NCBI RefSeq assembly: GCF_056746865.1
Contig: NZ_CM163382.1
DNA length: 64,000 bases
Strand: one strand, 5' to 3'
Every line of letters begins with the position of its first letter. Positions within the stretch are counted from its first letter, which is position 1. The notes beneath the pieces were generated by a model. The model ran no database searches, had not been told where the DNA came from, and was given only the letters and a program-made list of their open reading frames with translations. Both the position numbers and the translations under genes were made by a program. This document shows positions 18,003 to 43,870 of the stretch, one piece after another.

Positions 18003-18078
18003 GGCCCCTTAGCTCAGTGGTTAGAGCAGGCGACTCATAATCGCTTGGTCGTTGGTTCAAACCCAACAGGGGCCACCA
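18003..18078 (+). tRNA. ileX: tRNA-Ile (anticodon CAU, ileX-like)
   Basis: 76 nt: 7-bp acceptor stem GGCCCCT/AGGGGCC, D-arm, anticodon loop CTCATAA, T-arm GTTGG-TTCAAAC-CCAAC, 3' CCA. Ile2 rather than Met assignment is from memory of ileX and from position after mug. Confidence 0.85.
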
Positions 18079-18089
18079 TACACAACAAA

Positions 18090-18126
18090 GGGTTAGCTAA
18101 TAAACCAGCTAACCCTTTTTCTTTTT
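18090..18126 (+). terminator. Intrinsic terminator after the tRNA
   Basis: Stem gggttagct / agctaaccc with 8-nt loop, followed by tttttcttttt. Confidence 0.6.
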
Positions 18127-18136
18127 CCTTTGAATT

Positions 18137-18159
18137 GGGTCAGGTAATGGGTCAGGTAA
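18137..18159. repeat. Tandem direct repeat (gggtcaggtaa x2)
   Basis: gggtcaggtaa t gggtcaggtaa read directly, between the tRNA terminator and the first island gene. Confidence 0.5.
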
Positions 18160-18176
18160 GCTTTTTTCCATCTGAC

Positions 18177-19022
18177 TCAGATGGCTGATAATTGTCCCGG
18201 ATAACGCTTTGCAATGATGTCATTTAGCCGATCAACCAGTTCTGGTTTTCTGAATGTGATATGCGCGGAGCCCTTCTTAAAGTATCTGATGCTGAACATC
18301 TCATCTTCATAGCTCTCTTTACCCTGAACAGACTGAATGTGCTCATCCAGACGAATAGTGATGTTTTCCCGATTGTCGGGGATTGGTTTACCGCTGAACA
18401 GGTGCAACATTCTTTCCAGATCGGCGAGTCGGTCAGCCTGTTGTCCGGTGATAAGATGAAATCCCCACCGGTCCCATCTCACCAGATTGTTGACGATAAT
18501 TTTACTGCCAAATTTACAGGGGCAATTGGTTTTGTAATTCCAGTTCAGCCCTCTGAAGACGTTGATCACCCCTCGCTCAAACACCTCATCCTTATTCTGG
18601 TGCAGTTGTTCAAATGTGCTCAGGATGTTCGCTTCGCTGATTTCCGGAAAATTATCGTACTCCAGTGACCGGTACCATGTCTCACGGGCCTGTGCATCCA
18701 TTAAGGAAAGCATCCCGGAACGTTGCATCAAGTCACGCCAGATTTCACGATCGAGATTGTGTGTGATGGCTTTCATTGCCGTTTCAGGTTTCTCCATGAG
18801 CCAGCAGCCACAGCGAAAATCCTGTTTCATCGCCCAGTCCAGTGCGGTTTTACCGCCAATACTTTCTGTCATTGCTGAGATTTCAGCCAGTTGCCGGATA
18901 AGTGTGTTGATTTGCAGCAGTGTACTTTTTCGTACAGCCAGAATGTGGCGGATACTGGTTGAGCAGATAACGTCCGTATGCCCGTTGACTACTTCCGGAC
19001 GGGAGGCTGTGATATCAGACAT
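18177..19022 (-). CDS. Conserved hypothetical protein of CP4-type islands (possibly DUF4942 family)
   Basis: 281 aa ORF at the distal end of the cbtA module; family assignment from memory only. Confidence 0.5.
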   Translation of the reverse strand: MSDITASRPEVVNGHTDVICSTSIRHILAVRKSTLLQINTLIRQLAEISAMTESIGGKTALDWAMKQDFRCGCWLMEKPETAMKAITHNLDREIWRDLMQRSGMLSLMDAQARETWYRSLEYDNFPEISEANILSTFEQLHQNKDEVFERGVINVFRGLNWNYKTNCPCKFGSKIIVNNLVRWDRWGFHLITGQQADRLADLERMLHLFSGKPIPDNRENITIRLDEHIQSVQGKESYEDEMFSIRYFKKGSAHITFRKPELVDRLNDIIAKRYPGQLSAI

Positions 19023-27584: not shown

Positions 27585-29141
27585 ATGACAAGTATTCAAC
27601 AACGAGCAGAACTGCACCGCCAGATATGGCAAATTGCCAATGATGTCAGAGGTTCTGTTGACGGATGGGATTTTAAGCAATACGTTCTGGGCGCACTTTT
27701 CTACCGTTTTATCAGCGAAAATTTTTCCAGTTATATTGAAGCCGGTGATGACAGTATCTGTTATGCGAAACTGGATGACAGCGTAATTACTGATGACATT
27801 AAAGACGATGCCATCAAAACTAAAGGCTACTTCATCTACCCCAGTCAGCTTTTCTGCAACGTAGCGGCGAAAGCAAATACTAATGACAGGCTGAATGCAG
27901 ATTTAAACAGCATCTTCGTTGCTATCGAAAGTTCTGCTTACGGTTATCCTTCAGAAGCTGACATCAAAGGTTTGTTTGCTGATTTCGATACCACCAGTAA
28001 CCGCCTGGGTAACACCGTTAAGGATAAAAATGCCCGCCTGGCTGCGGTTCTGAAAGGGGTTGAAGGGTTAAAACTTGGTGACTTCAACGAACATCAGATT
28101 GACCTGTTCGGTGATGCCTATGAGTTCCTGATTTCTAACTATGCGGCAAATGCCGGTAAGTCAGGCGGTGAGTTCTTTACACCGCAGCACGTCTCCAGGC
28201 TGATTGCACAACTGGCTATGCACGGGCAGACCAGCGTTAACAAAATCTACGACCCGGCAGCGGGTTCCGGCTCACTGTTGTTGCAGGCGAAAAAACAGTT
28301 TGATAACCACATCATCGAAGAAGGCTTTTTCGGTCAGGAAATCAACCATACGACCTATAACCTGGCGCGTATGAACATGTTTTTGCACAACATCAACTAC
28401 GACAAGTTTGATATCAAGCTGGGTAATACACTGACTGAGCCACACTTCAGAGATGAAAAACCGTTTGATGCCATCGTTTCTAACCCGCCGTATTCGGTGA
28501 AATGGATTGGCAGCGATGACCCGACGCTGATTAACGATGAACGTTTTGCCCCGGCTGGCGTTCTGGCCCCCAAATCAAAAGCTGACTTCGCCTTTGTACT
28601 ACATGCGCTGAACTATCTTTCTGCCAAAGGTCGCGCCGCGATTGTCTGCTTCCCGGGTATTTTTTACCGTGGCGGCGCGGAGCAGAAAATCCGTCAGTAT
28701 CTGGTCGATAATAACTATGTCGAAACCGTGATTTCACTGGCACCGAACCTGTTCTTTGGCACCACCATTGCCGTCAATATTCTGGTGCTGTCTAAACATA
28801 AAACGGATACCAAAGTTCAGTTTATTGACGCCAGCGAACTGTTCAAAAAAGAGACTAATAACAACATCCTGACCGATGCTCATATCGAACAGATTATGCA
28901 GGTATTTGCCGGCAAGGAAGATGTTGCTCATCTGGCGAAATCTGTCACGTTTGAGACTGTTGTCGCGAATGACTATAACCTGTCGGTGAGCAGCTATGTG
29001 GAAGCGAAAGATAACCGCGAAGTGGTGGACATTGCTCAGCTCAACGCCGAGCTGAAATCTACTGTCGCCAGGATTGACCAGCTTCGCAGGGATATTGATG
29101 CCATCGTCGCTGAAATTGAAGGCGAGGAGCAGGAGGCATGA
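27585..29141 (+). CDS. hsdM: Type I restriction-modification system, N6-adenine DNA methyltransferase subunit
   Basis: 518 aa; AdoMet motif [10 protein letters not shown] and catalytic NPPY ([11 protein letters not shown]); N-terminal HsdM domain. Confidence 0.92.
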
Positions 29142-30343
29142 GTAGCGTGAACTTCTTGGAAAAGCTGTTGGATGGCGTTGAGGTCGAGTGGAAGACACTT
29201 GGGCAAACTTGCAAAATTGAAACAGGAAAGCTTAATGCGAATGCGGCTGTTGATGATGGAGAGTATATGTTCTTCACGACAGCCAAAGAGACAAGCAAAA
29301 TTGATAAATTCCGCTGGGATACAGAGGCATTGCTGATTGCAGGCAATGCGAATGTTGGTGAGGTGAAGCATTACATCGGCAAGTTTGAGGCTTATCAGCG
29401 CACCTATGTTCTGACAAATTTCGACGAAAATGTAAGTGTTAGATTTTTGTATTTTGTGCTTAGCCATAGCCTGAAGAAATATCTCGAGGAAAGAACAAAT
29501 AGCGCGGCAATGACATATATCGTGCTATCAACCTTAGAGAATTTCCCTATCCCCATCCCCTGCCCAGGCAACCCCCAAAAATCCCTTGCCATCCAGTCTG
29601 AAATCGTTCGGATTCTGGATAAATTTACTGCACTTACCGCTGAGCTTACCGCTGAGCTTAACATGCGTAAAAAACAGTACAACTACTATCGCGACCAGTT
29701 GTTGAGTTTTAAAGAGGGTGAGGTTGAGTGGAAGACTTTGGGGGAAATTGGAGATTTTACATATGGATATGCAGCCAAAGCCATGGATTCAGGAGATGCC
29801 CGTTTCGTGAGAATTACTGACATAAATAAAGACGGGAAGCTATCGAAAGAAAACCCAATGTACGTTGAATTAAATGAGGAAAATGAGAAATATACCTTAG
29901 ACAAAAATGATTTACTCATGGCAAGAACTGGGGCAACCTTTGGTAAAACAATGATTTTTGAAGAAGATTATCCAGCAGTATACGCTGGTTTTTTAATAAA
30001 GTTGAACCTAAATAAAACGATTATTAATGCCAAATATTACTGGCACTTTGCACAAAGTGATTTTTTTTGGGAACAGGCTAATAAATTAGTATCTGGTGGT
30101 GGGCAACCACAGTTTAATGCTAATGCACTGAAACAAGTCAGAGTACCTATTCCATACCCATCTCACCCTCAAAAATCTTTAGACGAACAGGGGCGTATTG
30201 TGGATATTCTGGATAAGTTTGATGCAATCGCAGCTTCCATCACCGAAGGTCTCCCGCGTGAAATCGAGTTACGTCAAAAACAATACGAATACTATCGTGA
30301 TTTACTGCTCAGTTTCCCAAAACCTGAAACTGTCAGTAAATAA
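29138..30343 (+). CDS. hsdS: Type I R-M specificity subunit (type IC architecture)
   Basis: 401 aa; ATG overlaps hsdM stop; two variable recognition domains separated by a conserved central region with TAELTAEL and conserved distal region ([24 protein letters not shown]). Confidence 0.9.
29633..29656 (+). repeat. 12-bp tandem repeat cttaccgctgag x2 in hsdS (TAEL x2)
   Basis: Two perfect tandem copies plus a 4-nt partial third (ctta), read directly; encodes LTAELTAEL in the HsdS central spacer. Confidence 0.9.
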
Positions 30344-33400: not shown

Positions 33401-33581
33401 GAAACGCTATATTCGCACATCTTTAAAACGCGAATACGCCACCGAAAATGGCACGGAATTAAACGAGACACTGCCCAGACTCAGTCCTTTAAATCCGCAA
33501 TATAAAACGAAAAAACAGACTGTTTTTCAAAAAATTAGCGCATTTATTGAAAAATTTAAGGGGGTGGGTGGAAAGATTTAG
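30465..33581 (+). CDS. hsdR: Type I R-M restriction endonuclease/helicase subunit
   Basis: 1038 aa; helicase motif I (TGSGKT) and DEAD-like box ([12 protein letters not shown]); length and sequence recall EcoR124I HsdR. Confidence 0.92.
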
Positions 33582-33731
33582 GGAAGGTGCGAATAAGCAG
33601 GTCATTTCTTCCCAAGCTGACTCGCTGATTAAAATTTCGCGGATCTGGGCCGATTTTTTTCCCGCAAACACATCGAATCGGCCTGTTTAGGCTATTTTTT
33701 CCACCATTTCTGGCGTTATTTCCGGTTTTTA

Positions 33732-36015
<2,284 letters not shown>

Positions 36016-38771: not shown

Positions 38772-41207
38772 CTAAGCGCGTTTGATTTCAACCAGGTTGG
38801 TATGTTGCGGGTTCCCTTTCGCCAGCGGCGACGGCAGGTGGCTGGTCAATGTGTTAATACATCCACCCACGTCCACACCGTTGCTGTCCAGTCGGGTCCA
38901 CGCGCCTTGCGGCATTGCCACCACGCCCGGCAGGATGCGCTGTGTCACCTTGCAGGGGATCTCCACCACACCGCGATCGTTGAATACATGGACCATATCG
39001 CCTGATTTCAACTGACGCACGCTGGCGTCTATCGGGTTGATCCAGACTTCATCCGGTACCGCTTCATGCAGCATCAGCACACTGGCATATGTTGAGTGCG
39101 TGTGACCTTTGGTGTGAAAACCGCTCATCTGTAGCGGATACTTTGCTGTCAGACTCTTGTTCAGATGGGACTCTGTCACTATACAAAATTCAGGAACAGC
39201 CGGAATGCGATCTCCTTCCGGTAGTGTCCAGGCTTTAGCCAGTTCCGCCAGAGTGTGCGAGTAAATCTCAATCTTCCCGGAAGGTGTCGTCAGTGGACTG
39301 GCAACCGGATCATGGCGGAAATCAGCAAGGATAATACTGTCCTCATCACGAGTACCTTGCTGATCGATAACCCCCATATTCATTGCAACTTCCCATTCAG
39401 GCAGATATGATCGCTTCTCTTTAACTTGTCCGTAATGCTTCGCCATCCACTCTGCCTGAGTACGCCCCTCAGTAAAACGCTCTCTTACCCCAAGATGCCC
39501 CGCAATATCTGCACAGATATCATAGGTACTGCGTACTTCCCACATCGGTGTGATCGTTTTTTGCATTGCAATCATGTAATGGTGAGAACCGGCTGCATAG
39601 GAACTGTCCACCAGATCCTCGGCTTCTAAGTAGCTAGTTTCTGGAAGAAGGATATCGGCAAAGCGGGCACTGGCAGTCATATGATTATCAATAACCACGA
39701 TAGTTTCGCACAGGCTGTCATCTTCAAGTATTTTGCGTGTACGATTGATATTTCCATGTTGATTCAGAAGTGCATTCCCGGCCTGGTTGAAGAACAGTTT
39801 AATACCGGTTTTCAGTTTATCCGCGCCTTTAACCCCCATAGTGGTGGCTGTCATTTTTTCCGGACTTTGAATCGCATCTGTCCACAGATAGCAGGGGATT
39901 GACACCTTAACGGGATTTTCACCAATCGGCAGAGCAGGAACACCATAAGGTGTTCCGTATGTCCAGTTCCCATTGTTGGTTCCTGGCAATCCAAAATGAC
40001 CCGTCAGGGCAGGAAGTATCTGAACCGCTCTGGAAGTCTGTTCACCATTTGCATGACGCTGTGGCCCCCATCCCTGGGCAATGAAACAGGCCCGAGCTTC
40101 GGCCATTTCACGTGCCAACTGGCGAATACGAATAGCCGGGATGCCACAGATATCTGCCGCCCATTCAGGTGTTTTTTCGACGCCGTCATCACCGTTACCC
40201 AGAACATAGTCTTTATAACTGGCATTTGGTTTCGCCGTTTCCGGAAGGGTGCTACGATCATAACCGACACAATAAGTATTGACTCGTTCTTCGTCGATCA
40301 GATTTTCTTTTATCAACGTGTGTGCAATAGCTGCTACCAGTGCAGCATCGGTTGTAGGGCGAATTGGTAACCATTCAGCATGTTCTGTAACAACAGAGTC
40401 TGTATAGCGCGGATCGATGATAATCACCCGGGCGCCTGATATTTCCAGCGCACGGCGCAGTTCTTCAACTTGCCCACCACCGGACATCCGAGTCTCAGAT
40501 AAATTCAGACCAAAAAAAACCACAAGATCAGAATGCGCAATCTGGCTAAAATGACTGGCAAACTGTACTCCTGTAGCACCATACGTGTAAGATGTGGCGG
40601 TAAAGTTTTGAGCGTTTGAGTAATTATTGTAATACTGCAGAAAACCGCCATTCAGGTTCAATAACCTTTTCCATGCGGGTGTTCCTTGGTTATGATAATA
40701 CGCGCCAGATTGATAATTAAAATAGATTGCTTCATTTCCATATTTTTCAGAAACGCGCTTTAATTCAGCGGCAATAAAGGCTGTGGCCTCATCCCATGAA
40801 ATACGTTTAAATTTCCCTTCTCCGCGTTTACCAACACGTTTCATCGGATATTTAATCCGGTCAGGGCTATAAACACGCCAGCGGCTGGAACGACCACGTA
40901 GGCAAGGTCGAATCTGATGTTCACCAAAAACAGAGTCGTCCTTCGCGTCCTCGGCTTCAATACGAACAATGCGTCCGTCTTTTACGATAACTTTTAATGG
41001 ACAACGACTTCCGCAATTCACCAGGCAAGCACTATGCCTGACGGTTTCAGCATTTTCGTTGGTTTTACCGGTATCCGATGTTTCGGCCCTGACGGTTGTG
41101 GAAAAAGGCAAAGTGATGGCGTTGCTTAGTGCAACGGCAGCTCCCAATTTTGCAGTTGTAGTCACCGCATCACGTCGGGAGATTGTTGTATTTAACAACT
41201 CTTTCAT
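38772..41207 (-). CDS. DMSO reductase-family molybdopterin oxidoreductase catalytic subunit (DmsA/YnfE-like)
   Basis: 811 aa; twin-arginine signal (TISRRDAVTT), N-terminal Cys cluster (HSACLVNCGSRCP), molybdopterin domains. Confidence 0.85.
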   Translation of the reverse strand: MKELLNTTISRRDAVTTTAKLGAAVALSNAITLPFSTTVRAETSDTGKTNENAETVRHSACLVNCGSRCPLKVIVKDGRIVRIEAEDAKDDSVFGEHQIRPCLRGRSSRWRVYSPDRIKYPMKRVGKRGEGKFKRISWDEATAFIAAELKRVSEKYGNEAIYFNYQSGAYYHNQGTPAWKRLLNLNGGFLQYYNNYSNAQNFTATSYTYGATGVQFASHFSQIAHSDLVVFFGLNLSETRMSGGGQVEELRRALEISGARVIIIDPRYTDSVVTEHAEWLPIRPTTDAALVAAIAHTLIKENLIDEERVNTYCVGYDRSTLPETAKPNASYKDYVLGNGDDGVEKTPEWAADICGIPAIRIRQLAREMAEARACFIAQGWGPQRHANGEQTSRAVQILPALTGHFGLPGTNNGNWTYGTPYGVPALPIGENPVKVSIPCYLWTDAIQSPEKMTATTMGVKGADKLKTGIKLFFNQAGNALLNQHGNINRTRKILEDDSLCETIVVIDNHMTASARFADILLPETSYLEAEDLVDSSYAAGSHHYMIAMQKTITPMWEVRSTYDICADIAGHLGVRERFTEGRTQAEWMAKHYGQVKEKRSYLPEWEVAMNMGVIDQQGTRDEDSIILADFRHDPVASPLTTPSGKIEIYSHTLAELAKAWTLPEGDRIPAVPEFCIVTESHLNKSLTAKYPLQMSGFHTKGHTHSTYASVLMLHEAVPDEVWINPIDASVRQLKSGDMVHVFNDRGVVEIPCKVTQRILPGVVAMPQGAWTRLDSNGVDVGGCINTLTSHLPSPLAKGNPQHTNLVEIKRA

Positions 41208-41301: not shown

Positions 41302-41413
41302 GTGAGATTTGGTGCTTAGCACAAATATAAATATTTGTGATCATTATCAAAATGTAAATGATAACGCATCTTTATTATCATTTGAGATTAAATATCACGC
41401 AGCGTTAATCTAA

Positions 41414-43870
<2,457 letters not shown>

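Follow-up and report, generated by a model that had tools for sequence, protein, structure and literature searches.

The two tandem copies of the 11-mer GGGTCAGGTAA that follow the tRNA-Ile2 gene ileX are very likely arm-type binding sites of an integrase encoded by a large genomic island that is inserted in this gene, and would now form part of its attL. This reading draws on the positions of the two units, their recurrence at both ends of the island in related genomes, their invariance, their fixed spacing, and their covariation. The motif had been described before in a related element, and a textbook part of an attachment site is a known kind of feature, so that the finding itself is an ordinary one; what the present analysis adds is the comparative case for the arm-type role.

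The window analyzed, a stretch of 64 kb, reads ttgaatTGGGTCAGGTAATGGGTCAGGTAAgc at positions 18130–18161. Within this segment, GGGTCAGGTAA appears twice as a direct tandem on the plus strand, at 18137–18147 (the proposed unit 1 of the tRNA-side, or P′, arm, starting 85 nt after the core described below) and at 18149–18159 (the proposed unit 2), exactly the unit and the coordinates given in the original prediction. Tandem Repeats Finder reported a perfect array of 2.0 copies with a 12-nt unit, TGGGTCAGGTAA, at 18136–18159. However, comparison with relatives revealed that the conserved unit is the 11-mer, with the single nucleotide at 18148, a T in the window, as a variable spacer; since this base alternates between T and C in the integrase-side arms of the relatives while the 11-mers stay invariant, the functional unit is the 11-mer. 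The placement of the array just past the terminator of the tRNA gene was also right, as the T-run ends at 18128 and the first 11-mer begins 9 nt further on. No third copy of GGGTCAGGTAA was found in the 64 kb with up to one mismatch (0.23 expected), and only five tandem arrays with a score of at least 40 were detected in the whole window. The tandem pair thus exceeds chance.

The only tRNA gene of the window detected by ARAGORN is located at 18003–18078 on the plus strand and carries a CAT anticodon, on which alone the “Met” label assigned by the program rests. The CAT anticodon of tRNA-Ile2 is read as isoleucine after lysidine modification, and the gene is ileX, the tRNA-Ile2 gene. Its flanking genes in the window are dnaG, rpoD, and mug, and its RefSeq tRNA-Ile homologue lies between mug and nfeF. 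In the island-free strains DH10B and T28R, the match to the window runs through the 20 bp of GACTCATAATCGCTTGGTCG, which begin in the anticodon loop and reach the start of the T-stem (18032–18051, plus strand), and then diverges from 18052. The following segment, comprising the T-arm and the 3′ strand of the acceptor (18052–18078, plus strand), differs from K-12 and T28R at paired positions, including a compensatory change in the T-stem, GTTGG...CCAAC in the window vs. GCTGG...CCAGC in K-12 and in the island-free DH10B and T28R. The T-loop, the terminator, and everything beyond also differ between the window and these two strains. In this regard, the intrinsic terminator of the window, with a hairpin at 18087–18118 and a T-run up to 18128 (18087–18128 in total, plus strand, from a terminator scan), is unlike the native ileX terminator of island-free strains, where ileX and its own terminator lead directly to nfeF.

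Since the divergence begins already inside the tRNA gene, after 18051, everything from there on belongs to the island: the 3′-terminal 27 nt of the tRNA, its terminator, and the repeat. By this comparison, ileX is a chimera in the window, with a chromosomal 5′ part and a 3′ part supplied by the island, and the boundary between chromosome and island is placed inside the tRNA gene, with the repeat 85 nt inside the island. The original prediction had set the repeat at the island junction itself, and in this point it has to be corrected. The same T-arm, terminator, and repeat were found in the island-bearing strains RM10410, at ileX, and S1-CAM-01-C, at the paralogous ileY, and the segment 18052–18078 is identical in island-bearing strains at both loci. 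When a 601-nt junction probe was used, the same arrangement was detected in about 400 of the 5426 complete genomes of E. coli, the similarity ending within or just past the tRNA in the remaining ones. An intact empty site, a restored 3′ part of the tRNA, and a displaced original one, described below, identify the boundary as the attL of an element integrated in a tRNA gene, a classical pattern for such elements.

The comparison with island-free strains that had been proposed as a check turned out in favor of the prediction, as the tandem repeat is absent from the empty ileX site of DH10B and T28R, which means that it was not made of target DNA. The suggestion that an attachment site or a recombination scar was to be expected at this place held in its first half, the repeat belonging to attachment-site DNA. 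The second half was discarded: neither a recombination scar nor a target-site duplication fits a motif that lies in island DNA, 85 nt off the core, and that is missing from the ileX loci of island-free strains.

The far end of the island is not within the 64-kb window, where neither a further copy of the motif nor nfeF was found; as nfeF, the usual right neighbor of ileX, is missing, the island must run off the end of the window, with a span of more than 46 kb here and of 47–61 kb in relatives. The search for the same unit at that end was successful in related complete genomes. In CUPS03, about 61 kb separate ileX from a tyrosine integrase gene beside nfeF, and an identical tandem pair, TTTGGGTCAGGTAATGGGTCAGGTAA, is present about 50 nt past the start codon of the integrase gene in the orientation of the window. 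This pair is followed by 126 nt of A+T-rich DNA and then by the same 20-nt core, after which come the displaced original 3′ part of the tRNA gene, with a T-arm of the K-12 type, the native terminator, and nfeF. The core GACTCATAATCGCTTGGTCG is the only segment common to both ends of the island. In RM10410, two copies of the motif on the same strand are about 47 kb apart, and the arrangement of CUPS03, with the motif at both ends, was also found in TUM9812, 2013C_3653, and ECL27977. Therefore, a motif unlike the core would be present on both arms of attP, one of them seen as attL in the window and the other as attR in the relatives.

Strain E105, the closest match to the junction, was rejected as a guide to the far end, as its island has recombined with a pheV island. 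In this genome (locus L005, NZ_CP071375.1, 4177433–4198807), IS1 connects the DUF4942 end at ileX with a segment whose other end is a pheV-associated integrase gene, and the core genes from yqgA to speB lie beyond this gene, suggesting a large rearrangement between the two islands.

A census of the tandem motif among the 5426 complete genomes of E. coli identified it in 479 of them, at 961 places with a median of two per genome, none of them on plasmids, in agreement with the approximately 400 genomes that have the attL junction and the approximately 450 that have the integrase-side arm. For an assessment of conservation in which the motif itself was not used, relatives of the integrase were picked by protein patterns, one genome per species. 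Both 11-mers were exact in 20 out of 20 full-length integrase relatives (84–99% amino acid identity), which cover about 15 enterobacterial genera, including Yersinia, Erwinia, Brenneria, Photorhabdus, Kluyvera, and Citrobacter. On the integrase side, the 11-mers are found roughly 50–75 nt upstream of the start codon of the integrase gene and 125–126 nt before the core, which is itself present with at most one mismatch in 19 of the 20 relatives. In the alignment of the region from the integrase start codon to the core, the only fully invariant windows of 11 columns are the two units, the spacer base being T or C and the flanks showing an average pairwise identity of 80%. On the tRNA side, all the attL-type loci examined have the pair at a distance of 85 nt past the core. 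These positions are thus constrained and conserved above their surroundings, as corresponds to arm-type sites.

An inverted copy, TTACCTGACCC, is present 12 nt nearer to the integrase gene in all the relatives except the E. albertii locus L028, in one case with a mismatch; it has also been lost from the common ileX lineage of E. coli, represented by CUPS03. In viral contigs, the 41 matches to the motif fall into two classes, one with the integrase gene adjacent and the core 126 nt downstream, and the other with the core 85 nt upstream; as the attL-type loci of these contigs were selected by the motif itself, its invariance there holds by construction, and only spacing and context are informative. 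The unit copy number varies between elements, with four tandem units of GGGTCAGGTAA in locus L036 (3518–3564) and three in locus L069 (1366–1400) on the integrase-side arm, not two. Partly degenerate variants of the pair were also observed in the viral contigs L163 and L176 85 nt after the tRNA-Ile2 core (GGGTCAGGTAATGGGTGATATAA and AGGTGACGTAATGGGTGACGTTA, respectively), which may be decaying or intermediate arm sites. In addition, a degenerate tRNA-side arm, GGGTCGAATTTTGGTCAGGTAATGAAT, appears in Citrobacter sp. On2M (L030) after the attR terminator, about 100 nt past the displaced 3′ part of the tRNA, and may be the remnant of a second, lost tandem element.

These data leave hardly any room for the explanation of the repeat as a chance duplication, a product of slippage, or a functionless scar or target duplication, as could have been suspected from a short sequence in only two copies, located in an intergenic spacer beside the boundary of a mobile element. 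The pair is absent from the empty site, keeps a fixed spacing to the core, has a copy at the other end of the island, and is invariant over about 15 genera despite diverged flanks, whose pairwise identity of about 80% means that the loci are not recent copies of one clone. Moreover, both units have changed in concert on both arms in a variant lineage, described below. We consider that an origin by chance, slippage, or scarring is refuted by the comparative data.

The integrase found beside the far-end pair contains an N-terminal arm-binding domain (Pfam Arm-DNA-bind_3, residues 5–97, 54.5 bits vs. a cut-off of 27) and a catalytic domain (Pfam Phage_integrase, 41.6 bits vs. a cut-off of 27.1), which makes it a suitable partner for sites of this kind. 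From the anatomy of the sites and the comparison of relatives, we infer that the N-terminal domain would be the binder of the 11-mers and that these would be needed in recombination. The best sequenced phage integrase is 38% identical to that of the island, and at this identity the assignment to a named group of phage integrases was dropped.

A scan of viral contigs with the 3′ halves of tRNA-Ile2, independent of the motif, yielded matches that, among those listed, were mostly native or of the 186 type. The same scan exposed a variant in which GGGTGACGTAA is present twice at exactly +85. This variant was first noticed through a tRNA-Ile contig, L159, and when viral contigs were scanned for it, all the matches save L159 were unrelated phage repeats. 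In E. coli UTME-7, a 20-kb island at ileY carries this variant, with GGGTGACGTAA-T-GGGTGACGTAA in attL 85 nt after the core; its integrase side contains an inverted TTACGTCACCC, an 11-nt spacer, and GGGTGACGTAG-T-GGGTGACGTAA, followed 125 nt further on by the same core. Thus, both units are changed on both arms, with the core and the geometry kept. The integrase of UTME-7 is 58% identical to its counterpart overall, 47% over the first 100 residues and 61–62% elsewhere, so that the sites vary together with the arm-binding domain in this one variant lineage, which comprises two E. coli genomes and one or two metagenomic contigs. As this is a single lineage, and the divergence of its N-terminal domain exceeds that of the remaining protein only moderately, the covariation is supportive of the arm-type role, not conclusive.

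The same data bear on the possibility that the 11-mers are bound not by the integrase but by an accessory protein, such as an AlpA/Xis-type excisionase or another recombination directionality factor (RDF) encoded in the island. Xis/RDF sites, too, typically consist of direct repeats in tandem, as known for lambda Xis and for TorI of KplE1. TorI sites have been described in the attL of KplE1 (PMC2951348). Genes of the AlpA family or with helix-turn-helix domains are annotated in related islands, AlpA-type regulators of such islands might vary along with the integrase, and which protein binds is not a matter that sequence comparison can decide by itself. However, RDF sites normally occupy only one arm, whereas equal tandem pairs are found here on both arms at fixed distances; the motif is kept across elements with quite different cargo and neighbors, the integrase being the constant partner, and the variant motif accompanies a diverged N-terminal domain of the integrase. 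Binding by an accessory protein thus seems to us unlikely in comparison with binding by the integrase.

Between the integrase-side pair and the core, a match to the consensus of IHF, YAANNNNTTGATW on this strand, was detected 52 nt after the pair in 21 of the 22 integrase-side arms. The unspecified positions of the consensus vary among the arms, and any match appears in 1.25% of shuffled sequences. The location of the integrase-side copies about 50–75 nt upstream of the start codon also raises the question of whether the 11-mers could be mainly transcriptional operators, serving for example the autoregulation of this gene or the coupling of its expression to the circular form, instead of structural parts of the recombination complex. 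In KplE1, the promoter of intS overlaps the arm-type sites in attL (PMC2951348), and the authors who described the related element IECsakMK101 considered that its repeats may regulate recombination (PMC12757443). Nevertheless, the copies of the window are 47–61 kb from the integrase gene when the island is integrated, and no sigma-70 consensus turned up over the sites of the integrase side in a simple promoter scan, so that a regulatory side-role is unsupported and a claim of autoregulation was dropped. A regulatory role would, in any case, be added to arm-type binding and not replace it. We regard a mainly transcriptional function as quite improbable, even more so than binding by an accessory protein.

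The island begins, beyond the repeat, with a gene encoding a DUF4942 protein (18177–19022, minus strand; Pfam DUF4942, E = 7.6e-69), with RefSeq matches in RM10410, S1-CAM-01-C, and CUPS03. This gene heads a module on the minus strand that includes a CbtA/CbeA toxin–antitoxin pair, RadC, an antirestriction protein, DUF932, and Ag43. The cargo comprises a type I restriction system, IS3 copies, a gene for a reductase of the DMSO/selenate type, lactate-utilization genes, a group II intron, and sugar-utilization genes. Several other repeats were observed in this cargo. A perfect 12-nt tandem repeat, CTTACCGCTGAG, in 2.3 copies (29633–29660), lies within the type I restriction specificity gene hsdS (29138–30343), in frame as Leu-Thr-Ala-Glu; in type IC systems such as EcoR124, the length of the spacer in the recognition sequence depends on how many copies of a similar repeat are present. 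Two near-identical direct copies of an IS3-family element (33576–35700 and 41408–43500), 7832 nt apart, bracket a cluster for a reductase of the DMSO/selenate family (A subunit at 38772–41207), which looks like a composite transposon, and a third, partial IS-related repeat was found at 51713–51813. The gene for the reverse transcriptase/maturase of the group II intron is located at 52116–53639 on the minus strand, with a 25-nt tandem repeat in 2.4 copies adjoining it at 51384–51443. Outside the window, a 129-kb plasmid of E. coli (NZ_CP183151.1, H40) carries an annotated tRNA-Ile at 98012–98090 with 86% identity to a portion of the ileX region.

Elements of the CP4-6 type have a layout that consists of a tRNA gene, a module of toxin–antitoxin, RadC, antirestriction, and Ag43 genes, cargo, an integrase gene, and a displaced 3′ fragment of the tRNA. 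The cryptic elements of this type in E. coli K-12 share their layout with the island family of the window. Among the closest described cases is IECsakMK101 from Cronobacter sakazakii MK_10, a 32.3-kb element at a tRNA-Ile gene (PMC12757443, Front Microbiol, December 2025), whose likeness to CP4-6 was pointed out in the same paper, where its excision to a circle was also demonstrated by PCR. Both its termini contain internal repeats, named DR2, with the motif 5′-TGGGTCAGGTAA-3′ (PMC12757443), identical to the 12-nt unit found here. Like the island of the window, it uses a tRNA-Ile gene as target and has the integrase gene at one end and a CbeA/CbtA-DUF987-RadC-DUF932 module at the other; it differs in host genus, size, and cargo. 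Its integrase presumably belongs to the same family, as the two elements have the tRNA target, the motif, and the end module in common.

The arrangement is also comparable to the arm-type sites of lambda (P1, P2, P′1–3) and to the P′ sites of KplE1/IntS, which are short repeats unlike the core, located on both arms and partly in tandem (PMC2951348). Sites of the lambda type lie from tens of bp to about 150 bp from the crossover, are bound by the N-terminal domain of the integrase, have an IHF site between them and the core, and become split between attL and attR once the element is integrated, a plan that the proposed sites of the island would follow. The sequence, number, and layout are different, with two units here on the tRNA side and two to four plus an inverted one on the integrase side.

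Regarding the insertion site, ileX is recorded as a target of integrative elements and of the LAA island (PMC7545054, PMC7067040). In the portions of these papers covered here, the elements at ileX are described by their gene content and insertion site, without description of arm repeats. A literature search on islands at ileX and their integrase returned only mentions of the insertion site, no published data on the integrase of the island turned up in the searches, and a search with the reverse complement of the motif returned only unrelated primers. A match to the motif in PMC3118216 was discarded, as it corresponds to an unrelated AtoC site in gadA.

Phage 186 integrates at ileY/ileX with the same tRNA-Ile2 core (PMC3448106). 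The 186/P2-like prophages are nevertheless different from the island: their integrase is of an unrelated subfamily, they have a tandem repeat of their own similar to TGGCAGCAAAA, and GGGTCAGGTAA is missing from their integrase-side arm. Tandem occupancy of the site is indicated by several viral contigs in which the core that precedes the tRNA-side arm of the island has a P2-like integrase gene directly next to it. P2/186-like prophages were observed in tandem with the island at the tRNA-Ile2 core in L040 (8990–9110) and, downstream of the displaced 3′ part of the tRNA, in L012, L015, L019, L024, and L025. Beside their integrase gene, these prophages show the repeat TGGCAGCAAAATGGCAGCAAA and variants such as TGTCGCAAAAATGTCGCA, which are probably arm-type sites of their own.

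Taking these observations together, we propose that the attP of the island would consist of an integrase-side arm, with the inverted 11-mer in most lineages, the tandem pair some 50 nt ahead of the start codon of the integrase gene, and the IHF-consensus site; a core of 20 bp identical to part of the tRNA; and a tRNA-side arm with the spare T-arm and acceptor end, the terminator, and the second tandem pair of 11-mers. The catalytic domains of the integrase would bind and cut the core while its N-terminal arm-binding domain would hold the 11-mers, so that the bent DNA arms would be bridged to the core within the recombination complex. Arm-type sites have an established role for integrases of this kind (PMC2951348). 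Integration would have split attP, fusing the tRNA-side arm to the chromosomal 5′ part of ileX as the attL present in the window, and leaving the integrase-side arm at the far end beside nfeF, as the attR located outside the window. Excision would again require both sets of sites.

The value of these results is mostly practical, and the understanding of such elements is unchanged by them. The true left boundary of the island is placed at 18032–18051, inside the tRNA gene and not after its terminator, and the two ends of the tRNA-Ile2 islands, a widespread family, can be recognized by an 11-nt signature at fixed distances. These islands, whose cargo includes restriction, metabolic, and adhesin genes, occur in about 9% of the complete genomes of E. 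coli and in many enterobacterial genera. For this integrase family, a testable set of candidate integrase-binding sites is thereby supplied. As a more tentative and rather doubtful extension, the integrases that use the tRNA-Ile2 core might be split into classes that do not cross-react, set only by the arm 11-mer (GGGTCAGGTAA vs. GGGTGACGTAA) and the matching N-terminal domains, and the tandem sites beside the start codon of the integrase gene might tie its expression to the integrated or circular state of the element. If that were true, different islands and 186-like prophages could share ileX and ileY in tandem without mutual excision.
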